NCBI GenBank assembly: GCA_036270795.1
Contig: DATBBW010000111.1
Span: 1-59,036 of the forward strand
Source of the DNA: Gemmatimonadales bacterium
GTDB lineage: Bacteria; Gemmatimonadota; Gemmatimonadetes; Gemmatimonadales; GWC2-71-9
Direction of reading: 5' to 3'
DNA: 59,036 nt
Numbering within the stretch: position 1 is the stretch's first letter; every line of letters begins with the position of its first letter. Position numbers and translations under genes: made by a program. Under the pieces are notes generated by a model that was not told where the DNA came from, did not search any database, and saw only the letters and a program-made list of their open reading frames with translations. Positions 11,480-59,036 of this stretch are shown here, piece after piece.

Positions 11480-13369
11480 TCATTCTGCAAACAGCCGGTG
11501 CCATACGGAGAAGCACAGCAACGCCCACAGGATCCCCTCGCGATTCTGCCGCCCCGTGAGGTGCTCGCGCTGCAAGGCCTCCACGACGGCGGGGTCGAAA
11601 TAGCCGAGGCGCCGGTGGCGCTCCGGCGACAGCTCGTCGCTCAGCATGCCGCGCAGCTCGTGCCGGAGCCACGCTGACGTGGGACCGACGAAGCCACGTT
11701 TGGGCGCCCGCAGATGGGCGGCTGGCACGCGGGGGCGCAACGCGCGTCGCAGTAGCCGCTTGTTCCGCCACCACCGCCCGATCTTCACGCGCTGGGGCAC
11801 GGGGAAGACCGCCTCCACCAGGACGTGGTCCACGAGGGGCACGCGGACCTCGAGCGAGTGCGCCATCGCCAACCGGTCGCTCAGCGCGAGGATGTCGTCG
11901 GGAAGAAACGTCATGTAGTCGAAATACAGGCCGGCGGCGAGGCCCGAGGGACACCCCTGAGCGCGAAACAGCTCCTCAAACCGCGCTCGTGCGGCGCCGC
12001 CGGTGATGTTGGCGCGCAGGCCTGGCGCGTATAGCCCCGGACGCTCGCCGTTCGGGAGCCGGCTCAGCAGGCTGAGAAAGCGGTCCGGAGCGCCCCCGGT
12101 GCCGGAGCGCAGGAAGCGTTTCAGGCGGTCGACGCCGAGGGTGCCGTCCCGGGGTTCGGGGAGCAGGCGACTGGCGGCGCTGGCGACTCGGCGCAGTCCC
12201 GCCGGCAGCTTCGCGTAGTGCTCGGCGGCGAGCAGGCCGATGTGCCGTCGGTACCCGGCAAACAGCTCGTCACCACCCGTCCCCGTCAACGCAACCTTGT
12301 ACCGGCTCCCCACCGCCTGGGACAGGAGCCAGGTGGGGATCGCCGAGTCGTCGGCATGGGGCTCGTCCAAGGCCCGGACGATGGGCTCGAAGATGTTCCG
12401 CACGTCCGGGCGGATGTCGATGAGCGTGAGCTCCGCGCCGTACCGTGCGGCGAGGGTCCGAGCGAGACCCGTCTCGTCGGCCGCCGTCGCGCCGGAACCG
12501 AAGTACTGCGCCGTGAACGCGTGCGGCGGCGCCCCACCCGCCAGCGCCATGCTGGCGACGACGGCTGAGGAGTCGAGGCCACCGCTCAAGAACGCCGCCA
12601 CAGGCACGTCGCTCACGAGGTGCGCCGCCACTGAATCGTCGAGCCACTCTCGCACCCGCACCTCGGGCTGGTGCGGCCCGGCACCCGGCGCCGGCGGAAC
12701 TTGCCAGTAGCGGCGGACGGTGGTCTCCCCGGTCCGCCGCCACACGAGCGTATGCCCCGGCTCGAGCTTGCGCACGTCCAGGAATGGTGAAGCAGGAGCC
12801 GGGATGTACCCCAGCTGGAAGTACGCATCGAGGGCCTCCCAGTCGAGCGCCCGCGACGTCAGGCCCGCGGCGTGCAGCGCCTTGAGCTCGGAGGCGAAGG
12901 CGATCCCCCAGGGAGCGGTGAGGACATAGAGCGGCTTGATCCCAAACCGGTCGCGGGCCAGGAGCAACGTCTCCGCAGACGCGTCCCAAATGGCGAAGGC
13001 GAACATCCCGCGCAGGGGGGTGACGCAGTCGGGCCCGAGCTCCTCATACAGGTGCAGCACCGTCTCCGTGTCGCTGCGGGAGCGGACCGCGTGTCCGCGG
13101 GCGAGCAGACCACGACGAAGGTCTTGGTAGTTGTAGATCTCGCCGTTAAAGACGATCACCTTGGAGCGGTCTTCGTTGAAGATCGGCTGCTGGCCGCCAC
13201 TCAGGTCGATGATGCTGAGGCGCCGCATTCCCAGGCCGACGCCGCCCTGGACCCAGAGTCCCTCGTCGTCCGGGCCTCGGTGCTGCATCGCCGTGCACAT
13301 GCAGCGCACCAGCTGCGCTGACACGGGCTTGTCTCGCTCGCGATGGAGGATGCCGGCAATGCCGCACAT
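11480..13369 (-). CDS. Asparagine synthase (glutamine-hydrolysing) family amidotransferase, EPS-locus type
   Basis: The N-terminal nucleophile is MCGIAGIL (Cys2), which fixes the start at 13369. The PP-loop motif is AAFLSGGLDSS. The protein is 629 aa. Confidence 0.9.
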   Translation of the reverse strand: MCGIAGILHRERDKPVSAQLVRCMCTAMQHRGPDDEGLWVQGGVGLGMRRLSIIDLSGGQQPIFNEDRSKVIVFNGEIYNYQDLRRGLLARGHAVRSRSDTETVLHLYEELGPDCVTPLRGMFAFAIWDASAETLLLARDRFGIKPLYVLTAPWGIAFASELKALHAAGLTSRALDWEALDAYFQLGYIPAPASPFLDVRKLEPGHTLVWRRTGETTVRRYWQVPPAPGAGPHQPEVRVREWLDDSVAAHLVSDVPVAAFLSGGLDSSAVVASMALAGGAPPHAFTAQYFGSGATAADETGLARTLAARYGAELTLIDIRPDVRNIFEPIVRALDEPHADDSAIPTWLLSQAVGSRYKVALTGTGGDELFAGYRRHIGLLAAEHYAKLPAGLRRVASAASRLLPEPRDGTLGVDRLKRFLRSGTGGAPDRFLSLLSRLPNGERPGLYAPGLRANITGGAARARFEELFRAQGCPSGLAAGLYFDYMTFLPDDILALSDRLAMAHSLEVRVPLVDHVLVEAVFPVPQRVKIGRWWRNKRLLRRALRPRVPAAHLRAPKRGFVGPTSAWLRHELRGMLSDELSPERHRRLGYFDPAVVEALQREHLTGRQNREGILWALLCFSVWHRLFAE

Positions 13370-13381
13370 GCCGCGACCAAG

Positions 13382-13397
13382 AGCAAGAGTAGCGCCA
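13382..13397 (-). promoter_or_regulatory. Sigma-54 promoter (TGGCGC-N5-TTGCT) immediately upstream of the asnB-like gene
   Basis: The minus strand reads TGGCGCTACTCTTGCT, matching 9 of 10 consensus positions. The -12 C is 14 nt from the A of the ATG, so the predicted TSS is about 2 nt upstream of the start codon. Confidence 0.6.
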
Positions 13398-13563
13398 CCC
13401 CCGCGTGCTCGGGCCTGACACACGCGGCCGCGCGCCGTGGTGCCACGGACCGGGTGGCCCCCCATGGTGGGCGCCTGGCCTTTCCAGGGTGTAGCGCCAG
13501 CGCGACAGCATCGGTCGCCGCGCCGTGCCAGCGCGACTCTTGCAACGCAGCCGGGGCACACGC

Positions 13564-14679
13564 ATGGCACTCCGATCCTCGCTGTCGCGCACGTTGGCTG
13601 GCCGGCACCTACCGGCGCTCGACGGACTGCGCGCCATCGCCGTCTTCACCGTGATCGTCTACCACTTTGGGATCACCATCGTCCCCGGGGACCTGGGGGT
13701 AAGCGCGTTCTTCGTGCTCAGCGGGTTCTTGATCACCTGGCTCCTGCTCAAGGAGCACCGCGCGACGGGCACGATCTCGCTCCGCCAGTTCTACACGCGC
13801 CGCTCACTCCGCATTTTCCCGGCGTACTACGCGTTTCTCGCGGTGTCCTTCATGATCGATTACGCCCGCGGGCACGAATGGCCCCCGGGATTGACGCGGT
13901 CCGCCGTGTTTTACGTCGTCAACTACTACAACGCGCTGCATGGCCACCCGGTGACCTCAATTGCCCACGCCTGGTCACTCGGCATCGAGGAGCAGTTCTA
14001 CCTCCTCTGGCCGCTGCTCCTGCTCGTGCTCTTGCGCGGCGGTGTCCCCCGTGCCGCCCGGGCCGTAGCAGTGCTCATCGTGGCCGTGGTGACGTGGCGG
14101 TGTGGCCTGTTCCTGGGACGCCACGTGGGCCAGGCGTACGTCTACAACGCTTTCGACACGCGCTTCGACAACCTCGCGGTCGGCTGTCTGCTCGCTCTGG
14201 GTGCCCAGGCCCCGGGGTTCCAGGGCGTCGCCGAGCGGTTGGGGCGATCGGCTCTCGCCCCGCTCGCCTCGCTGGCGCTCCTCGTCGTGTCGCGCACCGC
14301 CCTCGGTTCCACCTACCACTACACGTTGGGCTTCACGGTGGACGCCGTGCTCGTGGCCGTGTTCATCGTGCAGCTGCTGCAGCTGCACGGCTCCCCGCTC
14401 TGGTCGTGGCTGGAGTCGCCGCCGGCGCGATTCCTCGGAGTCATCTCGTACCCGCTGTACCTGTGGCATGTATGGGGGCTGACGGTGGGCCATCGCGTGC
14501 CGGTCGGCGGGTCGCTCGGCAAGTTCGTTGTTGGGGTCCTCGCGTGCATCGTGGCGGCGTGCGGGTCCTACTACGTCATCGAACGACCGTTCCTCGCCCT
14601 GAAGCGACGGTTCGAGCCACGCGCTGCGCCGCCGGCAGCGGCCGCCAGACGCGCCCACGCGGCCGAGACGCCGGTCTGA
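13564..14679 (+). CDS. Acyltransferase family 3 (OafA/WecH-like membrane O-acyltransferase)
   Basis: The N-terminus LPALDGLRAIAVFTVIVYHF is typical of Acyl_transf_3. The protein has multiple TM helices and an internal WSLGIEEQFYLLWP motif. Confidence 0.85.
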   Translation: MALRSSLSRTLAGRHLPALDGLRAIAVFTVIVYHFGITIVPGDLGVSAFFVLSGFLITWLLLKEHRATGTISLRQFYTRRSLRIFPAYYAFLAVSFMIDYARGHEWPPGLTRSAVFYVVNYYNALHGHPVTSIAHAWSLGIEEQFYLLWPLLLLVLLRGGVPRAARAVAVLIVAVVTWRCGLFLGRHVGQAYVYNAFDTRFDNLAVGCLLALGAQAPGFQGVAERLGRSALAPLASLALLVVSRTALGSTYHYTLGFTVDAVLVAVFIVQLLQLHGSPLWSWLESPPARFLGVISYPLYLWHVWGLTVGHRVPVGGSLGKFVVGVLACIVAACGSYYVIERPFLALKRRFEPRAAPPAAAARRAHAAETPV

Positions 14680-50950: not shown

Positions 50951-51011
50951 GCGTCACCGCAGCGGGGTCGCTCATGTGGAGCTCCCAGCGCTTCATGAAG
51001 GGAGGGTAGCG

Positions 51012-51155
51012 ATGCATCCGCAACACGTGAAACGGCCGTTTGTGGCGCCTACGCTGCACCGGGAGGCGTCGCTCGCCAGCGTGACGCTGTGGAGTAGTGG
51101 AGGTGACGCTGGAGTCGAGGAACAGGAACACGAGGGATATGAGGGGTCAACGTAA
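51012..51155 (+). CDS. Candidate RiPP precursor peptide (47 aa) with a lasso-type leader motif
   Basis: GGAGGG lies 5 nt upstream of the ATG. The peptide is MHPQHVKRPFVAPTLHREASLASVTLWSSGGDAGVEEQEHEGYEGST. The segment F-xx-P-x-L-xxx-A-xxxxx-T-x has the spacing of the lasso leader motif YxxPxLx3Gx5Tx. Local GC3 is lower than in neighbouring genes. Confidence 0.6.
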   Translation: MHPQHVKRPFVAPTLHREASLASVTLWSSGGDAGVEEQEHEGYEGST

Positions 51156-51181
51156 GTGATACGAAGCGGTTGCCCCTTGTT

Positions 51182-51211
51182 GCGCCAGCCGCCGCCTTAA
51201 GCGGCTGGCGC
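51182..51211 (+). terminator. Intercistronic stem-loop between the precursor ORF and the kinase gene (attenuator or processing candidate)
   Basis: The arms gcgccagccgc (51182..51192) and gcggctggcgc (51201..51211) are exact reverse complements, with an 8-nt loop. There is no T-tract. Confidence 0.4.
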
Positions 51212-51233: not shown

Positions 51234-52148
51234 GTGCCGACCCCCTTCCTCGTCTGCGACGATGCCCCCCTCCGAGCCAGCCTGACGGCATGGCTTGAGA
51301 AGGGAGGGCTCGCTCCGTCGACCGCCTTGACCCTCGTCGTTCAGGTCGGCGATCCACCGCCCCTCGACGCCGATGATCGCCCGGTGTTCCACCAGCCTGA
51401 CGTCCTCATTCGTTCCGGCCCCCCGCACGGCACGCTGACGCTGTCCTGGGAGCGGGCCCCGGCCCTGGCCGAGATCGCGCCCGGCACGCAGACCGCGCGC
51501 GTGACCCTGTCGCGGCTGGCGGTGGCGCGACTCCAGGAGTGCACCTGCACGTTTTTCATGGCGGTCTTGATCTTCCTCTTGCGGCGCGCGGGCTGGCACC
51601 ACGTGCACGCCGGCACGGCGATCGACCCGGCGGGGCGCGGCTGGCTGATCGCCGGCGATAGCGGGGCCGGAAAGTCGACGACTGCGGCGCTGTTCGCGTC
51701 GCATGGCTGGCAGGTCGGCACCGACGACGCCACGTTTCTCGCACCCGCGGGCGCACAGGTGGCCGCCGTGGCCTACCGCGCCCCCATCGCCTTGCGCCCG
51801 GACGCGCAGCGCGCGCTCGGCCGCTCCGGCGGGATCCCGGTCGCGGGGCGCCGCAAGGCGGCGTACTGGCCCGAAGACCTCGGGGGACGCTGGGCACCGA
51901 AGGTCGAACCCGAAATCGTGGCATTCACATCGGTGGGGGAAGGACCCACTCGGGCGGCGCGGCTCGGAGCGCGTGCGGCCTTGGCGCAGCTGGTGCGCTG
52001 GTCGGCCTGGGTGGTGCTCGAGCCCGACTTGGCCCAGGAGCACCTCGACTTGCTCGCGCGGCTCGCGCGACAGGCCCGGAGCTATCGCGTCAGCTTGGGG
52101 CCCGATCTCTTCACCGACGTGGCCGGCCTCCCCGACCTCGTTCGATGA
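51234..52148 (+). CDS. HPr-kinase-related serine kinase (lasso/RiPP-associated type)
   Basis: The P-loop GDSGAGKST sits in an HprK C-terminal-domain-like context (WLIAGDSGAGKSTTAALF). The protein is 304 aa with a GTG start. Confidence 0.75.
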   Translation: MPTPFLVCDDAPLRASLTAWLEKGGLAPSTALTLVVQVGDPPPLDADDRPVFHQPDVLIRSGPPHGTLTLSWERAPALAEIAPGTQTARVTLSRLAVARLQECTCTFFMAVLIFLLRRAGWHHVHAGTAIDPAGRGWLIAGDSGAGKSTTAALFASHGWQVGTDDATFLAPAGAQVAAVAYRAPIALRPDAQRALGRSGGIPVAGRRKAAYWPEDLGGRWAPKVEPEIVAFTSVGEGPTRAARLGARAALAQLVRWSAWVVLEPDLAQEHLDLLARLARQARSYRVSLGPDLFTDVAGLPDLVR

Positions 52149-52420
52149 CGGATCGCTACCGCCGCCACCACGACCTGCGGCTCGCCGCGCTCGAGGACGA
52201 GGGTGTGATCCTGCACCTGGGCTCGCGCAGCTACTTCACCGTGAGCGAAAGCGGCGTCCTCATCTTTGAGGCGCTCGCGACGCCCCACAGTGTCGAGGAG
52301 CTCGTCGCAGTCCTCCAGGCTCGCTACGAGGTCAATGCCGAGCAGGCCGAGGCGAGTGTGCGCGATTTCCTCGAGCGTTGCCGCGCCGCCGATCTGCTGG
52401 AAATCGAGGCAGGCGCGTGA
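52145..52420 (+). CDS. PqqD-family protein (RiPP recognition element, lasso B1-like)
   Basis: There is an ATGA overlap with the kinase gene. The 91-aa protein reads LRLAALEDEGVILHLGSRSYFTVSESGVLIFEAL...SVEELVAVLQARYEV...VRDFLERC, the typical PqqD pattern. Confidence 0.8.
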   Translation: MTDRYRRHHDLRLAALEDEGVILHLGSRSYFTVSESGVLIFEALATPHSVEELVAVLQARYEVNAEQAEASVRDFLERCRAADLLEIEAGA

Positions 52421-54144
52421 GCGCCTCGGCGTCGCTTCCCTGGGCGTGGCGGCTCCGCGCGGTGCTTACGATGGCAATCGTCCCCCCCCTCCTGCACGTC
52501 ATGTCGTTTGCGCGGATCGCCTCGTGGCTCGGCGGACGTCCGCGGTGGGCCGCCCCCTCCGTCGCTGGGTTGCGCGACGACGTGCTGGCACACTGGGTGG
52601 ATGCGCTGCTGCGGCACTGGCCTCCGCCATGGCGGTATACGTGTCTCAAGCGCGCCGCGGTGCTCTATCATCTGCTGCGCCGGGCCGGTCGGCCGGTGGA
52701 GCTGCGGATCGGCGTGCGGCGTGCCGGCGGCACGGGCGGTGCGCTCGCGGCGCACGCCTGGTTGGTGCGGGATGGCGTTCCCTATCTCGAGCCCCAGTCG
52801 GGACAGCCGTCCCTTCATGCGGTCATCGTCCGTCTGCCGGAAGGAAGCGGAGTGAAATCTCTGGCCGACGATCCTGCGCAACTCCTGCTCGAGACGCTGC
52901 GACTCCAGAGCGAGCGCAGTCGGGACGAGCTGCGCACGGCGTGGGCGAACGCCCGTACGGACGGGCTCGCCCGCCTCGTCGCGTTCGAGGGATGCGCGCT
53001 CTGGTTGGCGCACCGCCTGGCGCGGATCGACGCGCGCCTGCTGTTGCCGTTCGACTTCGCGAACTGGTTGCAGCGGCGGGTGCGCAAAGAGGTTGCGCGC
53101 AATCTGCTCGTCGGCGCCCAGGTGGACGCGCTCGCCGGCGTCTTCGCCGCCGACGGGATTCCCTACGTACTGCTTAAGGGCGCCGCCCGGCAGGCGTTAG
53201 GGGATGCCTTAGCGTACGCCGCGGTGCGTTCGATGCGCGACGTCGATGTCTTGGTGCCGGCGGCCCGCGCCCCGGAAGCCTGGCATCAGCTGCGCCGCCG
53301 CGGCTACGAACGCGCCGCTCCGCCGGGCGCGACCCCGACCCTCCACCACCACTTCCCGCCGTTATGGGATCGGGCCCGCATTACGGTCGAGCTACATACC
53401 TCTACCTCGCGCCGCCTGCCCCCGCTCGCGGCATGGCGCCGCGCGATCTGCGCGGCGCGCACGGTGGAGCGTGAGGGGCGTACCCTTCCCGTCCCTTCAG
53501 ACACCGAGCTGCTATGGCATGCGATCACCCACGGGCTCGATCAGCAGGCGCGCGCCTTTCGCCTGCAGCCACTCCTCGACGTGGCGCTGCTCTGCGCGAG
53601 CGGCGCCGAGATCGACTGGGGAGTGATCGTGGCACGGTTCGCCGGGGACGAGATCGAACACCATCCGCGCGCCATCGCCTGGCTTCGCGCGGCGAGCTGG
53701 CTCGTCGGTCGACCGCTACCACCGGAACTCTCGACGGGGCTCCCCCCGTTCGAGTTAGGGCGCGCGCTGCGGTGGCGGCTGGCGGTGTTCAGGCACACCG
53801 ACGCCGGCAGTCGGAGCGGCGAGCGGTTGTTAGAGGAAGGCATGCGCTGCGAGATCGGGCTTGGCTTGTCGCCCGCCGTCCGCGGTGCCGGGATCGGCCA
53901 GCGAACCCGTGGCCACGTCGCGGCCTCCGCGGCGCAGGGTATGTACCGTGCGTGGCGCGTCGCCGAACGCCTAGCTCGACCCGAGGCGCCACTGGTGCGC
54001 CAGCCGCACGATACCGACGCCCTCCGCCTCGCTGTGGCTCACCCGGAACCGGGCCGCACGCTTCACAACGAACATGGGCCTTTGGGCGAGACGATGCTCG
54101 AGCACCAGCACGTGCAGCGCGTAGACACCGCGGCTCAGGCTTAG
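52417..54144 (+). CDS. Fusion: lasso-type B2 transglutaminase-like cysteine protease (N-terminal) plus uncharacterised nucleotidyltransferase family (C-terminal)
   Basis: There is a GTGA overlap with the PqqD gene. The B2 part is RYTCLKRAAVLYHLLRRAG...ELRIGV...AHAWLVRDGVPYLEP (Cys and His). The NTase part is IPYVLLKGAA...MRDVDVLVP...HHHFPPLWD...VELHTS. Confidence 0.75.
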   Translation: MSASASLPWAWRLRAVLTMAIVPPLLHVMSFARIASWLGGRPRWAAPSVAGLRDDVLAHWVDALLRHWPPPWRYTCLKRAAVLYHLLRRAGRPVELRIGVRRAGGTGGALAAHAWLVRDGVPYLEPQSGQPSLHAVIVRLPEGSGVKSLADDPAQLLLETLRLQSERSRDELRTAWANARTDGLARLVAFEGCALWLAHRLARIDARLLLPFDFANWLQRRVRKEVARNLLVGAQVDALAGVFAADGIPYVLLKGAARQALGDALAYAAVRSMRDVDVLVPAARAPEAWHQLRRRGYERAAPPGATPTLHHHFPPLWDRARITVELHTSTSRRLPPLAAWRRAICAARTVEREGRTLPVPSDTELLWHAITHGLDQQARAFRLQPLLDVALLCASGAEIDWGVIVARFAGDEIEHHPRAIAWLRAASWLVGRPLPPELSTGLPPFELGRALRWRLAVFRHTDAGSRSGERLLEEGMRCEIGLGLSPAVRGAGIGQRTRGHVAASAAQGMYRAWRVAERLARPEAPLVRQPHDTDALRLAVAHPEPGRTLHNEHGPLGETMLEHQHVQRVDTAAQA

Positions 54145-55182
54145 CCGCTGATACGCGAGCTCAAGCGTCACCGTCTCACCCGCCCGGGCAGTGATCTCGA
54201 TGCCCTGGCGGTTCGAACGGGTGCCGTGCAGCACGTGCCAATCTCGAGCGAGCTGAACGCCGACCACCGCGCCTCGCACGGCGCGCACCGCTCGTAGGCG
54301 AATCCGCACGGTGAGCGGCTGGTCCACGGTGTAGACCGGCGACGCTCCTCCTGGCGCATCGACGAGGTCGACGGCCTCGATGACCAGAGACGCGTGGTTT
54401 GGGTCGCCTTCCCCGGCGAGCGTGTGCGCAGCCGCGGCGTCGGCCTCGATCACGCGGTCGTACACTTCAAACGCCTCCTCCGGCGTCCCCGTGCGCGCGA
54501 CCCGGCCTCGATGCAGGAGGACGGCTTGGTCACACAACTGCTCGATGAGATAGCGGTCGTGCGAGACGAGCACGAGCGTGGTGCCGCCTGCCTGGAACGC
54601 CAGGATACGCTCGAGACAGCGGTCCCGAAACGCCGCGTCGCCCACCGCGAGGGCCTCGTCGATGAGCAAGATGTCCGGCTCGACGTGCGCGGCGATGGCG
54701 AAGCCTAGCCGCAGCGACATGCCCGCGGAATAGAACTTGACCGGGACGTCGGCGAACGCTTCGAGCTCGGCGAAGCGGAAGATCGCGTCGAGCTTGGTGC
54801 GCAGCTGGTGCCGGTCCAATCCCAACACCGCGCCTTGGAGGAAGACGTTCTCGCGCCCCGTGAGATCCCCATGGAAGCCGCCCCCCAGATGCGTGAGCAA
54901 CGCGAGGCGGCCCGTCACGTCGATGGTCCCGCGGGTCGGCACCATCATCCCGGCGATCAGTTTGAGCATCGTGGACTTGCCAGAGCCGTTCGCGCCCATT
55001 ACGGCGCAGGTCGTGCCCCGCGCGATCCCGAACGACACATCCTCGAGCGCCCAGAAGGCGCGGCGCAGCGGTGCCACTCCGTCCCCGCGCCAGGGCCACA
55101 GGCCCAACGTCAGGTCTCCCAACGAGCGACCGCGCAGGCGGAAGCGCTTCCACACGCCCACGGCGGCGATGGCATCGGTCAT
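53971..55182 (-). CDS. wzt: ABC transporter ATP-binding protein, Wzt/TagH type, with a C-terminal beta-sandwich extension
   Basis: Walker A is GANGSGKST, the signature is YSAGMSLRLGF, and Walker B is ILLIDEALAVGD. A C-terminal domain of about 150 aa follows the NBD. Confidence 0.88.
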   Translation of the reverse strand: MTDAIAAVGVWKRFRLRGRSLGDLTLGLWPWRGDGVAPLRRAFWALEDVSFGIARGTTCAVMGANGSGKSTMLKLIAGMMVPTRGTIDVTGRLALLTHLGGGFHGDLTGRENVFLQGAVLGLDRHQLRTKLDAIFRFAELEAFADVPVKFYSAGMSLRLGFAIAAHVEPDILLIDEALAVGDAAFRDRCLERILAFQAGGTTLVLVSHDRYLIEQLCDQAVLLHRGRVARTGTPEEAFEVYDRVIEADAAAAHTLAGEGDPNHASLVIEAVDLVDAPGGASPVYTVDQPLTVRIRLRAVRAVRGAVVGVQLARDWHVLHGTRSNRQGIEITARAGETVTLELAYQRLSLSRGVYALHVLVLEHRLAQRPMFVVKRAARFRVSHSEAEGVGIVRLAHQWRLGSS

Positions 55183-55185
55183 GCC

Positions 55186-56019
55186 CTAGACGGACTCGGG
55201 AAAGAAGGGCTCGGTGACGCGGAACAGCAGCACGCCCACGACCAGCAGCACGGTCCCCGCCCCGAACGGATAGAGCAGACTTGCCAGGGCCGGCGGGCGT
55301 CCGCCGAAGAGCGCCGTGCGCGCGCCTTCGAATACGGCGACCAGTGGGTTGAGATCGTACAGTGCGCGGTAGTGCGTCGGCACAGCCGAGGACGCGTAGA
55401 CGACGGGGGTTATCAGCAGCCAGAGACGGACACCGACATCGACCAGGTGGCTGAAGTCGTGGTAGAAGACGTTCAGGGCCGAACAGATCAGCGTCAACCC
55501 AGTGACGATCATCACGAGCACCACGGCGACGGGGAGCAACCACAAGGCCGCGAAGGACGGGAGCGCGGTGCGGTAGGCGATTAGGAGCACTGCGAGCAGC
55601 AGACCCGCGACCATGGCATCGACCATGGCTGCCGCGAGGGCCGCGAGCGGAATCGTCGCCTTGGGGAAGGGCGTGCGCGATACGAGCGCCGCGTGGGCCG
55701 TGATGCTGCGCGTCCCGCGCGGCAGTCCGCCGGCCACGTAGGTCCACAGGACAACCCCGGTGTACGCGAAGAGGGGATAGGGGATGTCGCCGGAAGGCGC
55801 CTTGAGGAAAGAGCCGAAGACGATGACGTAGACAACGAGTTCTCCCAGCGGTCGGCCGAGTGCCCACAGCGCGCCGAGGAATGTCTGGCGGTAGCGCGTC
55901 TTCAAGTCCCGCACAGTCAACTGATAGGTCAGAAAGGCGAATTGCGAAATGGTTGCCACGCGGGCTTTCACAGGCGGCACGATTCGACCAAAGCTAACAG
56001 CCGAGCGAAGACCGTACAA
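55186..56019 (-). CDS. wzm: ABC-2 type polysaccharide/polyol-phosphate export permease (Wzm)
   Basis: The N-terminal motif is LTVRDLKTRYRQTFLGALWALGRPL, followed by 6 TM helices. The stop is 3 nt before the wzt ATG. The start is uncertain (TTG 56019 or GTG 55971). Confidence 0.85.
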   Translation of the reverse strand: MYGLRSAVSFGRIVPPVKARVATISQFAFLTYQLTVRDLKTRYRQTFLGALWALGRPLGELVVYVIVFGSFLKAPSGDIPYPLFAYTGVVLWTYVAGGLPRGTRSITAHAALVSRTPFPKATIPLAALAAAMVDAMVAGLLLAVLLIAYRTALPSFAALWLLPVAVVLVMIVTGLTLICSALNVFYHDFSHLVDVGVRLWLLITPVVYASSAVPTHYRALYDLNPLVAVFEGARTALFGGRPPALASLLYPFGAGTVLLVVGVLLFRVTEPFFPESV

Positions 56020-56169: not shown

Positions 56170-57180
56170 TCACGTGGCGGCCGGTGCCCGACGGGAACTC
56201 GCGGCGCGGGCGGCCGCGGCGAACCGCTGCACAATCTCCCCCGTCGGCTCAATGCTCCTAATCCCGCTCACGCTCTTGCCGGCCTGCCAGTAATCCTTGG
56301 ACGACGGCCCGGCGACGTGGCCCCGCTTGAGCCGCCACGCGGAGTTGAGCGCGTAGAGGGCCCGCATCCAGTGCTTGGTGCGGCGGCCGCGCAGCAGCCA
56401 GCGCGCCAGCGGACCGGCCTTCAGGCCCACGCGCGCCACGTGCGGCGTGCGAATCACGGCGAGCGGGACGCCGGTGACGCGCTCGGTCAGCACGATGTCG
56501 TCCTCTGCGGCGGCGACAATGGCGCGTTTGTAGTCGAGGTGGGCGGTGCACTCGGTCGTCGCGATGAAGCGCGTGCCGAGCTGCGCACCGGCGTACCCCA
56601 GCTCGAGCGCCGCGACGAATCCCGCGGCATCGCCGATGCCGCCGGCGCACACGAGCGGCACCCCCAGGTCCCCGAGCTCGTCGCGCAGCTGCTCGGCGCT
56701 GCGCGGCCCCGCGTGCCCGCCGGCCCGGTTATTGACGGCGATGAGCCCCCGCACGCCCGACTCGAGGCCCTTGAGTGCCCACTTCCGCTCCGTCACGTCG
56801 TGGTAGACGAGCCCACCGACCGGGCGGACGTGATCGACCACCCAGCGTGGCTTGCCGAGCGACGTAATAAAAAAGCGCACGCCTTCCTCAAGCGCGACAT
56901 CCACCCACCGCTTCATCCGGTCGAGGTACAGCTTGGACGACTGCTCGATGAGCACGTTCATCCCGATGGGCCGGGACGTGAGACGCCGGATCAGCCGCAG
57001 CCCCTCGCGCAGGTCGTGGCCATGCACATACACCAGGGAGAGCGGCTGCACGATGCCGATGCCACCGGCCTCCGACACGGCGGCCACGAGCTCGGGATTG
57101 GAGCACGGGAACATGGCGCCGCCAATGAGCGGCACGGCCACCCGCGCGTCCCGCGTGAGCGGGGTGTCGAGCGAGATCAC
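56170..57180 (-). CDS. Nitronate monooxygenase / FabK-like FMN oxidoreductase family protein
   Basis: Motifs are [39 protein letters not shown] and [11 protein letters not shown]. The GTG start overlaps the upstream stop (GTGA). Confidence 0.8.
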
Positions 57181-57665
57181 GCCGGCGGCACCGGCCCGAT
57201 GCGCCACCGCACCGTGGCGCGCGCCACGACGTCCCCCGCCGCATCCGTGATGACCGACGGGTAGTCGTACTCGGCTGCGCGGGTGGCGGCGGGCGCGGCA
57301 CAACGCGCTTCGGCGGTGAGCGTGCCCCGCGCCTTCTTCAAGAACGTGATCGAGAGCGCGATCGGGATGCCCCGCACGGTCGCCGGCAGGCCGAGGGTCA
57401 CTGCGAGACCGCTCGTGACCTCGGCGAGGTTCGCCAGCGCTACGGCGTGCACCGAGTCGAGATGATTGCGGACCTGTCGGCGGTCCACCATCTGGACCTT
57501 CGCATACCCCGGCGCGAGCTCGAGGACCCGGGGGCGCACGGTCCCGGTGTAGGGGACCAGGCGGCCGAGCAGCCAGCTGAAGAGCCGCCGGCCCCCGGGC
57601 AGTGGGGCGAGTCGCTCCCACCAGACGCCGAGCCGCGTCGCCGGGCTCGCCCGAGGCGTGGTCAT
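57177..57665 (-). CDS. Hotdog-fold (DUF4442/PaaI-like thioesterase) protein
   Basis: The protein is 162 aa. Motifs are [24 protein letters not shown] and GTLTAEARC. Confidence 0.65.
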
Positions 57666-57747: not shown

Positions 57748-59036
57748 CTAAGGGGTCCGGGCCGACACGCCGTTGCCCAGCAGGTAGCGCTCGACGAACA
57801 ACAGCGTGGCGTAGAACTGGAAGTCCTGGTTCGCCTTCTTGCGGAACCCGTGACCCTCGTCCTTGGCCATCAGGTACCACACCGGCACCCCGCGTTGCTT
57901 GAGCGCCGCCACCATCTGTTCGGACTCGGTGCGGGGGACACGAGGGTCGTTCATTCCTGCGACAATGAACAGTGGCTTCGTCACCTTGGCGACGTTGGTG
58001 AGCGGCGCCGTGCGCTCCATCCACGCCCGGATCGTCGAGTCACGCTCGTCGCCATATTCGACCCGCCGCAGGTCCTGACGGTAGCCCGAGGTGTGCGCGA
58101 GGAACGTCGCCAGGTTCGACATCCCCACCACGTCCACCGAACAGCAGATCCGGTCGTCGTACCGGGTGGCGGTCACGAGGGTCATGTGGCCGCCGTAGCT
58201 GCCCCCGGTGATGAGCACGCGGTCGGCGTCGAGCTCGGGCCGCGCCCGGATCCAGTCGAGCAGGGCGCCGATATCGCGGTACGCGCCTTCGCGGAGCACG
58301 CCGTTGTCGAGCTTCACGAAGGTCTTGCCGTAGCCCGTCGAACCCCGGATGTTGGGGAAGACGAGGGCGACGCCGAGCTCTTGCAGGTAATAGTTGTTGC
58401 GACCCAGGAATCCCGGCCGCGACTGGCCCTCGGGCCCGCCGTGGATGTTCACGATCACCGGCCGGCGTCCCGAAAACCGCGCCGGCGGCTTGTAGAGGAA
58501 GCCCGCAACGGCGTGGCCGTCGAAGCTCGTCCAGTGGACCAGCTCGGGCCGGGCGAAGCCGCTCGGCTGGAGCCCGGCCGTCTCGCTCTCAGTCCAGCGC
58601 ACCAGCTGGCCGCGCGCCAAGTCGAGGGAGTACGCATCCGCGGTGGTCTGCGCGGAGCTGTAGGTGAAGCCGAGCTCGGCGCCGCTGCGGCGCCAGCGCA
58701 GCCCGCCGATCAGCCCGGGGGGGAGCGTCGGCACCCGCCGCTCCACCCCGGTCTGGGCGTTCGCCACGTGCAACACGCTGCTCCCGTCCTCGTTGGTCAC
58801 GAACGCGATCAAGCGCCCGTCGGGCGCGACATCGAACTCCTCCACGTCCCACGGGATGGCGGTGGTGAGGAAGCGGTAGCGCCGGGTGCTGAGGTCCAGG
58901 TAGGCGAGCCGGTGGAACTCCGCGCCGAGGTCCGTCGTGAGGTAGAGACCCGCACCGTCGCGGCTGAAGCGGGGGGCACCGTAAGCGACGGTGTCCGCGT
59001 CCACGGGCGCCGTGAGCAGGGTCTTCTCGCCCCGGT
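57748..59036 (-). CDS. S9-family serine peptidase (beta-propeller + alpha/beta-hydrolase); 5' end lies outside the window
   Basis: The catalytic Ser motif is ITGGSYGGHMT. Other features are IVNIHGGPEGQ, the Asp in AGMNDPRVP, and GHGF. The frame stays open to the window edge. Confidence 0.88.
   Translation of the reverse strand, partial: RGEKTLLTAPVDADTVAYGAPRFSRDGAGLYLTTDLGAEFHRLAYLDLSTRRYRFLTTAIPWDVEEFDVAPDGRLIAFVTNEDGSSVLHVANAQTGVERRVPTLPPGLIGGLRWRRSGAELGFTYSSAQTTADAYSLDLARGQLVRWTESETAGLQPSGFARPELVHWTSFDGHAVAGFLYKPPARFSGRRPVIVNIHGGPEGQSRPGFLGRNNYYLQELGVALVFPNIRGSTGYGKTFVKLDNGVLREGAYRDIGALLDWIRARPELDADRVLITGGSYGGHMTLVTATRYDDRICCSVDVVGMSNLATFLAHTSGYRQDLRRVEYGDERDSTIRAWMERTAPLTNVAKVTKPLFIVAGMNDPRVPRTESEQMVAALKQRGVPVWYLMAKDEGHGFRKKANQDFQFYATLLFVERYLLGNGVSARTP

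Follow-up and report, generated by a model that had tools for sequence, protein, structure and literature searches.

A conserved precursor peptide gene of a putative cyclase-less, lasso-derived RiPP pathway in Gemmatimonadota

The precursor gene and its cassette

The 59,036-nucleotide stretch of Gemmatimonadales DNA studied here (contig DATBBW010000111.1 of assembly GCA_036270795.1; hereafter, the window) has a G+C content of 70% and carries, towards its 3′ end, a 47-residue open reading frame (ORF) that in the source metagenome-assembled genome (MAG) is annotated as a hypothetical protein only. The initial annotation of this ORF proposed that it encodes a precursor peptide, in which the leader motif spacing of lasso peptides is joined to a highly acidic, non-lasso core. 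The ORF translates into MHPQHVKRPFVAPTLHREASLASVTLWSSGGDAGVEEQEHEGYEGST followed by a stop codon, and upon re-reading the sequence we found F10, P13, L15, A19, T25 and L26 exactly where they had been placed. The strong Shine-Dalgarno (SD) sequence with a 5-nt spacer was also there, and the same gene was called on an identical Logan contig. The features of the locus are collected in Table 1.

Table 1. Precursor gene, its parts and the adjacent cassette and pump genes in the window
Feature	Position	Strand	Remarks
Shine-Dalgarno sequence GGGAGGG	51000-51006	+	5-nt spacer TAGCG, then ATG
Precursor peptide gene (A)	51012-51155	+	47 residues and stop codon
Leader, residues 1-26	51012-51089	+	F10-x-x-P13-x-L15 (51039-51056; lasso positions -17, -14 and -12), E18-A19-S20-L21, V24-T25-L26 (T at -2, L at -1)
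Predicted core, residues 27-47, WSSGGDAGVEEQEHEGYEGST	51090-51152	+	S28 (51093-51095), the conserved junction-proximal Ser; S46/T47, the C-terminal hydroxyl pair
Perfect 11-bp GC-rich hairpin	51182-51211 (arms 51182-51192 and 51201-51211)	+	In the 78-nt spacer between the precursor stop codon and the kinase gene
HprK-like (ScmC-like) P-loop peptide kinase (K)	51234-52148	+	304 residues; H123/H125, G141-x4-G146-K147-S148-T149, D164-D165
PqqD-family recognition element (B1)	52145-52420	+	91 residues; ATG overlaps kinase stop codon (ATGA); Pfam PqqD E 1.4e-16
Fusion of lasso-type B2 cysteine protease and NTP_transf_5 nucleotidyltransferase	52417-54144	+	Likely start GTG at 52417, overlapping B1 stop codon (GTGA)
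Wzt-type ABC ATPase with Wzt_C domain	53971-55182	-	Convergent, overlaps the end of the B2/nucleotidyltransferase gene; ABC_tran 6.6e-18, Wzt_C 8.5e-13
Wzm-type ABC-2 permease, Wzt partner	55186-56019	-	ABC2_membrane 1.5e-13

Between the precursor gene and a convergent Wzm/Wzt pump of the ATP-binding cassette (ABC) type there are only three genes, encoding a kinase (K), a recognition element (B1) and a leader protease (B2) fused to a nucleotidyltransferase (NTase). The start/stop overlaps at 52145 and 52417 indicate that they form one operon. The kinase is a distant relative of HPr kinase (HprK) rather than HprK itself, because its scores against the Pfam and TIGRFAM HprK models are below cutoff; the matches to Pfam Hpr_kinase_C and to the NCBIfam HprK-related and ScmC models all stay under their cutoffs, those to the NCBIfam kinase models at about 20 bits compared to the required 125-200. 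A search of the PDB with the A1 profile identified HPr kinase at E 0.005. In a Foldseek search with the AlphaFold2 model of the kinase (mean predicted local distance difference test score 90.6), the best PDB matches were phosphoenolpyruvate (PEP) carboxykinases (E 2e-6, TM-score 0.45), and HprK was not among the top 50 matches. HprK belongs to the same fold group as PEP carboxykinase, and we take this match between a predicted model and PEP carboxykinases as pointing to the superfamily fold only.

B1 is a member of the PqqD family (61 bits for the Pfam model, cutoff 23.4). It scores under the cutoffs of the NCBIfam lasso PqqD models (45 vs 80 and 39.5 vs 70), and its closest solved relatives are lasso B1 proteins, namely TbiB1 (8e-07), 9x90_B (3.5e-06; the record is named "lasso peptide biosynthesis PqqD family chaperone") and TfuB1. 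The B2 domain exceeds the cutoff of the lasso_biosyn_B2 model NF033537 (55.8 vs 33 bits) and also matches Transglut_core3 (9.6e-14). Its catalytic Cys (52642), His (52753, within an AHAWL motif) and Glu (52789, twelve residues after the His) are invariant in all 48 sequences compared; in McjB the position of this Glu is taken by Asp. The NTase domain (NTP_transf_5, E 6e-33) has its K-G at 53176 and D-V-D at 53239-53247, the D-x-D being kept in 48 of 49 sequences. A PDB sequence search with the whole B2/NTase fusion returned nothing useful. The fusion ORF shares 174 nt with the convergent Wzt gene, at the 3′ end of the latter. Where apparent homology extends over the last ~60-110 B2/NTase residues, as it does in certain loci, it may reflect the conserved Wzt gene on the opposite strand rather than real coding sequence.

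The genes farther out, namely those for a short-chain dehydrogenase/reductase and a YncE-like propeller upstream, and those for nitronate monooxygenase, a 162-residue ORF (57177-57665) and a 418-residue ORF (57748-59004) downstream, were undetected at every related locus described below, and this sets the borders of the cassette. A reading of the region as a defence system was dropped, as PADLOC gave generic P-loop and ABC similarities only.

The leader defines a large family in Gemmatimonadota

Taken alone, the lasso-like motif of the ORF means little. Its loose form, [FYW]xxPx[LIVM]xxx[AG]xxxxxTx, matches the six-frame translation of the window just once, in the precursor ORF, but about 0.57 matches are expected by chance in a window of this size. 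Since the motif by itself is not significant, it is the position of the ORF and its conservation that carry the argument. A scan of species-representative genomes for related cassettes yielded 54 loci, all of them in Gemmatimonadota; the cassette, including a precursor, also occurs on one contig that bears a Rokubacteria label. In the protein collection, the kinase has at least 414 relatives at 50-65% identity.

Precursors in the genome loci were picked by a protein regular expression for the leader, which yielded 57 distinct small ORFs in 43 of the 54 loci, in one to three tandem copies per locus. All 57 lie on the kinase strand and all but one lie 5′ of the kinase gene, the exception (L015) being downstream of the NTase gene. 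Two or three tandem precursors sharing the same leader and differing in their cores occur in L020, L021, L024, L028, L030, L032, L037, L038, L043, L051, L052 and L054. Among the 11 loci having no precursor match, seven include less than 300 nt of sequence 5′ of the kinase gene, and three more (L006, L007 and L009) are reduced or rearranged cassettes, in which genes for tRNA-Val(cac) and tRNA-Met(cat) stand on either side of the kinase homolog; these three may represent remnants or an integration hotspot. With a profile built from 28 precursors, 436 protein clusters were recovered (E ≤ 0.01). None of these has a name, and the few bearing organism labels are assigned to Gemmatimonadales or Gemmatimonadota. 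The family regular expression also fits all of the 120 metagenomic precursor clusters.

The family leader follows the consensus (K/R)P-F-V-x-P-x-L-x-E-E-A-S-L-x-x-V-T-L, after which comes a hypervariable core. In the numbering used for lasso precursors, which places Tyr at -17, Pro at -14, Leu at -12 and Thr at -2 (PMC10368454), the 57 genome-derived precursors have Phe (54) or Tyr (3) at -17, Pro (54) at -14, Leu, Val or Ile (57) at -12, Glu (54) at -9, Ala (52) or Gly (5) at -7, Ser (55) at -6, Leu (57) at -5, Thr (57) at -2 and Leu (57) at -1. In other words, this is the (Y/W)xxPx(L/V/I) register of lasso leaders with Thr at -2, having Phe in place of the usual Tyr or Trp. The lasso register originally noticed in a single peptide is borne out by the conservation of every one of its columns. 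The alignment of small ORFs next to homologous cassettes, which had been suggested as a check, shows both the ORF and its motif to be retained.

The nucleotide sequences tell the same story. Identity within the leader is three-periodic (0.71, 0.75 and 0.41 for the three codon positions), and synonymous and nonsynonymous codon differences number 10099 and 9525 in frame, compared to 1928 and 17229, and 1175 and 18095, in the other two frames; this periodicity test is not fully independent, as its rows were chosen with a protein regular expression. Of 58 family ORFs, 52 have an SD-like site along with a start codon that lies 4-15 codons ahead of the Phe. Because of the periodicity, the synonymous excess, the retained SD and start codon and the conservation of the peptide itself, we conclude from comparative evidence that the precursor ORF is a translated gene under selection, in line with its original designation as a genuine precursor-peptide gene. 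The opposite idea, that of a spurious ORF with a chance motif in an intergenic region, could draw on the high chance expectation of the loose motif, but it is effectively refuted by the 57 homologous ORFs and 436 database clusters, by their coding signatures, and by a position 5′ of the kinase gene that is fixed in all but one locus.

The cassette and its sub-groups

The gene order A-K-B1-B2-NTase is conserved across the 54 loci, K being present in 54, B1 in 50, B2 in 47 and NTase in 48 of them. The catalytic motif of the kinase, consisting of His, a plain Walker A sequence GxxxxGKS[ST] and Asp-Asp, is intact in every locus. It corresponds to the conserved residues listed for lasso precursor kinases such as BsfK (PMC10368454), except that the Walker A form of BsfK, GxxGxGKS, is not kept in most loci. 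B2 and NTase are separate, overlapping genes in 45 of the 46 other loci and are fused only in the window and in L012.

The exporter is less constant. A Wzt homolog was found in 27 of the 54 loci, and in 21 of these loci Wzm lies beside it; L008 has an MsbA-type pump in place of Wzt/Wzm. Among 37 loci that could be assessed, a convergent Wzt homolog (≥50% identity) directly follows the NTase gene in 17. These 17 Wzt-linked loci have long cores (median 29 residues), which are basic or His-Gly-rich and mostly Ser-terminated; cores in the other 20 are short, with a median of 12 residues. The window falls into the long-core, Wzt/Wzm-linked subgroup, its 21-residue core being a compositional outlier there. 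In one sub-clade (L021 2-1513 on the minus strand and relatives; L021 8909-9784 on the plus strand), the neighbours of the cassette include a FadL/TodX-type outer-membrane channel (7 loci) and a DUF4097 protein (13 loci), which may be accessory transport components.

No cyclase was detected and the cores are not lasso-competent

Lasso peptides are defined by a trio of functions: leader recognition (B1), a leader protease (B2) and a cyclase (C). The cassette has counterparts of the first two, and the initial annotation had already reported the third as missing. The sole Asn_synthase protein of the window (11480-13645) has full glutaminase domains, scores 417 bits against TIGR01536 (cutoff 267) and has an XrtA/PEP-CTERM amidotransferase as its best match, while for the lasso cyclase model NF033535 it attains 194 of the 525 bits required. 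This protein was ruled out as a lasso cyclase; it is a true AsnB, and the polysaccharide locus to which it belongs is 38 kb distant. Elsewhere, in tblastn with a bona fide AsnB query, none of the 54 loci gave an AsnB-like match over a distance of about 5 kb; a divergent lasso cyclase could escape such a search. Likewise, Pfam detected no Asn_synthase domain in 16 sampled flanking ORFs, which instead encode efflux pumps, a kinase, purine enzymes, GH127, FadL, SelA and similar proteins. On all three counts, the 59-kb window, the loci and their sampled flanks, our results agree with the original observation.

The cores point in the same direction. None of the 120 tested combines Gly, Ala, Ser or Cys at residue 1 with Asp or Glu at residues 7-9, as a lasso-compatible core would. 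The core of the window begins with Trp, has Asp or Glu at core positions 6, 10, 11, 13, 15 and 18, and ends in G-S-T, so the earlier remark that it is not lasso-compatible holds and can now be extended to the family. Many cores of the genome set have no acidic residue at all, and some are only six residues long. Judged by their sequences, these features argue strongly that the cores of the family are unable to form lassos.

A conserved serine next to a variable tail

Core position 2 (S28 in the window, three residues past the invariant Thr25) is Ser in 49 and Thr in 5 of the 57 genome precursors, and Ser in 115 and Thr in 5 of the 120 metagenomic clusters. With 54/57 and 120/120, it is the best-conserved residue of the core, and the three precursors without Ser or Thr at this position have a Ser one or two positions later. 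The core of the window opens with W-S-S-G-G, the family consensus being x-S-G-G.

The opposite end of the peptide is conserved only in part. The initial annotation had pointed to the C-terminal hydroxyl residue, S46-T47 in the window, as a possible acceptor of the paeninodin kind. A C-terminal Ser or Thr does occur in 30 of 57 genome precursors and in 98 of 120 metagenomic clusters, but 19 of 43 loci have not a single precursor with such an end, and yet all the kinases keep the H...GxxxxGKS[ST]...DD signature. As a universal acceptor, the C-terminal Ser/Thr was for this reason ruled out, and the proposal does not hold family-wide. The association between a C-terminal Ser/Thr and the presence of Wzt is weak and not significant (Fisher p 0.10).

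Beyond the junction, tails range from 6 to 40 residues, and their highly variable composition contrasts with the invariance of the junction itself. Many contain (His-Gly)n runs and terminate in ...GHNS or ...GHSS (e.g. L005, L034, L036, L041 and L056 5905-), and others are rich in Arg, Lys or Asn. Such tails suggest binding of metals or polyanions; taken together with the acidic tail of the window, these sequences hint at possible metal-binding or matrix-related functions.

The window peptide is itself unusual in this company. That its core is acidic and begins with Trp was stated at the outset and is true, but neither property is a family trait: no other among ~175 cores is as acidic (net charge -6), and Trp at core position 1, usually Ile or Val, is found in the window alone. 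G+C at third codon positions (GC3) falls from 0.81 in the leader (first 26 codons) to 0.48 in the core (last 21 codons), which had been thought to fit a precursor gene. We rejected low GC3 as a signature of precursor genes, since the family means are 0.76 for cores and 0.79 for leaders, and the window value is an outlier.

A sequence repeat was noted in the same place. The 9-mer GTGACGCTG, which codes for V24-T25-L26 (51081-51089), recurs exactly at 51103-51111, 22 nt downstream. Read in the +1 frame (alternative ORF 51085-51159), the second copy gives EVTL-ESRNRNTRDMRGQRK and a stop codon, and this peptide resembles the typical basic cores of the family. The repeat and the low GC3 of the core make a frameshifting duplication in the window allele possible.

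Comparison with known systems

Among the closest known systems is that of the linear polyphosphorylated peptides (LPPs) of Paenibacillus alginolyticus, encoded by LppA/K/B/S/D/N (Popov et al., Nat Commun 2026, PMC13381572). This pathway has no cyclase; a signal-peptidase-like enzyme cuts after Thr at -1, and LppK polyphosphorylates Ser3 of the core (PMC13381572). The LPP leader logo is YxxPxVLxHQxIxFETxxS, its final Ser being the polyphosphorylated Ser3, and LPPs have been reported as restricted to Bacillota (PMC13381572). The Gemmatimonadota cassette shares with it the LPP core gene set, that is, an HprK-like kinase, a discrete PqqD-type RiPP recognition element (RRE) and an NTP transferase, with no macrolactam cyclase. 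Both families also have one to three precursors, which are conserved at the N-terminus and hypervariable at the C-terminus. Even the spacing of the leader is common to both: aromatic residue (1), Pro (4), hydrophobic residues (6 and 12), Thr (16) and Ser (19), the last of which is S28 in the window. On the other hand, our family departs from LPPs in two features that define them: its leader protease is a lasso B2, whereas LPP clusters have a signal peptidase I of archaeal type (LppS), and in place of their MsbA-like pump it has Wzm/Wzt ABC-2 or none. The leader has a near-invariant FxxP instead of YxxP and EEASLxxVTL instead of HQxIxFET, and the predicted cut falls one residue later, leaving Thr at -2 rather than at -1. 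Finally, the hosts are Gemmatimonadota (54 loci), plus the single Rokubacteria-labelled contig, rather than Bacillota.

Among true lasso systems, a useful comparison is provided by the Bsf cluster of Bradymonas sediminis (bsfA-K-B1-B2-C-D-N), which makes a phosphorylated lasso peptide; Ser3 of its core is the residue phosphorylated by BsfK, in a reaction sped up by B1 (PMC10368454). It too is a Gram-negative cluster with K, B1, B2 and N genes, and it has the aromatic-xxPxL leader motif at -17 to -12. In both cases the kinase has the His, the P-loop Gly, Lys and Ser and the Asp-Asp pair, and the Bsf acceptor Ser adjoins the cleavage site just as the conserved core Ser adjoins the predicted site here. 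The differences are the cyclase and the core Gly1 and Asp8 of Bsf, for which we found no counterpart (neither a cyclase nor ring-forming residues), Ile instead of the invariant Thr at -2, and an acceptor register that is off by one, Ser3 in Bsf against the proposed Ser2 here. Leader and B2, and probably B1, are common to our family and lasso systems in general, but of the two features that make a lasso, neither a cyclase nor a ring-competent core was found.

In paeninodin-type clusters, an HPr-kinase homolog transfers phosphate to the Ser at the C-terminus of the linear precursor; in the case of pseudomycoidin, a nucleotidyltransferase, sometimes fused to B2 in paeninodin-type clusters, adds a hexose to the phosphate (PMC8498205). 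Our family resembles these systems (PadeK, PsmK and PsmN) in the HPr-kinase homolog, in the occasional NTase-B2 fusion, as in the window, and in its many Ser-terminated members. It departs from them in that their clusters include a cyclase, their leaders are of the WxxP kind, their acceptor is strictly the C-terminal Ser and their hosts are Bacillota; here, 19 of 43 loci do without the C-terminal hydroxyl, and Thr is the last residue of the window peptide. More remotely, the HPr-rel-A system (TIGR04352/TIGR04353) and the SynChlorMet cassette (ScmC/ScmD) also place an HprK-like P-loop protein beside a PqqD-family protein. The cassette of the window gave weak matches to all of these models, but the scores are far under cutoffs and the radical SAM/SPASM partner is lacking here. 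We found no description of a Gemmatimonadota or a B2-dependent cyclase-less system in the literature that we searched, which is absence of evidence rather than proof. The family is best described as a B2-dependent, FxxP-leader, cyclase-less variant related both to phosphorylated lasso peptides and to LPP-like linear phosphopeptides, undescribed in the literature that we searched.

A proposed pathway and its alternatives

We propose, with a probability of roughly 0.6, that the ORF encodes the conserved precursor (A) of a cyclase-less, lasso-derived pathway for a peptide made by ribosomes and then post-translationally modified (a RiPP), which is widespread in Gemmatimonadota and yields a linear, Ser-phosphorylated product. 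The individual steps, including the site of cleavage, the acceptor residue, the product of the NTase and the role of the exporter, we infer by homology and by register. F10-x-x-P13-x-L15 would dock onto the PqqD-type B1, like the Y/WxxPxL leaders of lasso and LPP pathways, and the bound precursor would be presented to the HprK-like kinase. The kinase would phosphorylate, possibly repeatedly, the junction-proximal S28; in the subgroup with a C-terminal Ser or Thr, to which the window belongs, the last residue might be phosphorylated as well. The NTP_transf_5 domain, fused here to B2, would then decorate the phosphate further, the homologous enzyme of pseudomycoidin being one that adds a hexose. 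Next, the B2 cysteine protease would cut after T25-L26, releasing a linear core of 21 residues; this site is predicted on the strength of the Thr(-2) rule of lasso peptides and the intact catalytic residues of B2. Export of the product would fall to the convergent Wzm/Wzt ABC-2 pump, and no macrolactam ring would form at any stage.

We favour S28 as the common phospho-acceptor because it occupies position 19 of the register shared with LPPs, because Ser or Thr is found there in 54 of 57 and in all 120 precursors, and because 19 loci have no C-terminal Ser/Thr. In the long-core subgroup, S46/T47 could be a further site.

Several observations weigh against the proposed pathway. As described above, the kinase and B1 match the curated HprK and lasso PqqD models only below cutoffs. 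All the organisms are known from uncultured MAGs and most of the genomes are incomplete, so a cyclase encoded elsewhere is possible, though the core sequences speak strongly against one; the locus-wide search, relying on a bona fide AsnB as the query, may have passed over a divergent one. Wzm/Wzt pumps normally move lipid-linked glycans, and a homolog was detected in only about half of the loci. The conserved Ser could be a determinant of protease action or recognition instead of an acceptor, and the enrichment of C-terminal Ser/Thr (98/120) may mean that PadeK-like C-terminal phosphorylation is the main event in the long-core subgroup of the window. The step assigned to the NTase is the weakest link, because LppN was inactive upon heterologous expression (PMC13381572). 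Lastly, with its low GC3 and its VTL-codon repeat at a 22-nt spacing, the window core is an outlier, and this allele may have been rearranged recently.

One alternative, which we consider unlikely, is that the pathway is paeninodin-like, the defining (poly)phosphorylation taking place on the C-terminal Ser/Thr (S46/T47) and the junction Ser serving protease or RRE recognition only. PadeK-type kinases do act on a Ser at the C-terminus and are not very specific for the remainder of the precursor (PMC8498205), C-terminal Ser/Thr is enriched in both precursor sets, and most cores in the subgroup of the window are Ser-terminated. What speaks against this reading is that intact kinases accompany precursors lacking such a terminus in 19 of 43 loci, that the link of the terminus with Wzt is weak, that the window peptide ends in Thr rather than Ser, and that the conserved Ser is in register with the phospho-Ser of LPPs (PMC13381572). 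A different idea makes the tail largely irrelevant: the peptide would be a scaffold or primer, of which only the x-Ser-Gly-Gly junction matters, and a phospho-linked glycan, assembled on the Ser by NTase together with other enzymes, would be handled by the O-antigen-type Wzm/Wzt pump. A tail so variable beside an invariant junction, the Wzt_C domain of the ATPase, which binds glycan ends, the polysaccharide locus in the same window and the location of LPP and paeninodin clusters in capsule loci (PMC13381572) would all fit. Yet Wzt/Wzm homologs are found in only about half of the loci, L008 has an MsbA-type pump instead, no glycosyltransferase is conserved within the cassette, and tandem diversified precursor copies are more typical of bioactive RiPPs, so we regard this idea as distinctly unlikely. 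A related reading, also unlikely, is that of a phylum-wide, undescribed RiPP class in which lasso recognition and the B2 machinery are uncoupled from ring formation, and in which the junction Ser with its phosphate-linked (glyco)modification, rather than the tail, is read by the Wzt_C domain of an O-antigen-type Wzm/Wzt pump. If so, the peptide would be exported by polysaccharide machinery and might contribute to the cell envelope or matrix.

The two remaining alternatives concern the window allele and the missing ring. The allele might be decaying or recently frameshifted, a duplication having put a second GTGACGCTG 22 nt downstream and, by shifting the frame, having replaced a basic core, VTL-ESRNRNTRDMRGQRK, with the acidic one. 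The exact repeat (51081 and 51103), the EVTL-E-S sequence with an Arg/Asn-rich tail in the +1 frame, much like other family cores, the GC3 of 0.48 and the unique charge and Trp1 are what such an event would leave behind. However, W-S-S-G-G of the current frame fits the x-S-G-G consensus better than E-S-R-N does, a 9-mer may repeat by chance in GC-rich DNA, an independent Logan assembly has the identical sequence and the enzymes are intact; on balance, we consider the frameshift improbable. As for a true lasso precursor served by a cyclase from elsewhere in the genome, the lasso-type leader register, B1 and B2, together with the incompleteness of the MAGs, leave some room for it. The room is very small, given that no cyclase was detected in the window, within ~5 kb of the 54 loci (AsnB tblastn) or among the 16 flanking ORFs, that none of 120 cores has a small first residue along with Asp/Glu at 7-9, and that many cores are non-acidic or six residues long, with Ile or Val usual at position 1.

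Implications

To our knowledge, the only cyclase-less relatives of lasso peptides described so far are the LPPs of Bacillota, reported in 2026, in which B2 is replaced by a signal peptidase. The Gemmatimonadota family keeps both B1 and B2, and no cyclase was found with it. This suggests that the leader-processing module of lasso peptides has been reused at least twice for making linear phosphopeptides, in very distant phyla. The family therefore offers a natural test of how B2 and the kinase recognize their substrates when no ring is made, and its FxxP motif provides a third aromatic variant, beside YxxP and WxxP, for studies of RRE specificity. In more practical terms, hundreds of small genes stay unannotated in abundant and mostly uncultured soil bacteria, and genome-mining rules that require a cyclase are expected to miss them.

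Other features of the window

A large polysaccharide locus occupies positions 6523-31280 of the window. It codes for a Wzy_C O-antigen ligase-like protein, an oxidoreductase/epimerase fusion, the XrtA/PEP-CTERM-type asparagine synthase discussed above, a Polysacc_synt flippase, a sigma-54 response regulator and a GNVR/CbiA chain-length tyrosine kinase.

Scans for promoter and terminator consensus sequences around the precursor gene found nothing, and neither did Rfam (at the gathering threshold) or a tRNA scan of the window. The perfect hairpin in the spacer between the precursor and kinase genes (Table 1) may be an attenuator or a transcript stabiliser, and in 29 of 42 loci (L002-L055) the corresponding spacers are more structured than their mononucleotide shuffles (median z -2.8), although the spacer of the window itself folds less well (z -1.1 to -1.7). 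On the other side of the start codon, an imperfect palindrome (50981-51010; 18-nt arms, 78% complementary) overlaps the SD sequence of the precursor gene and could sequester the ribosome-binding site.

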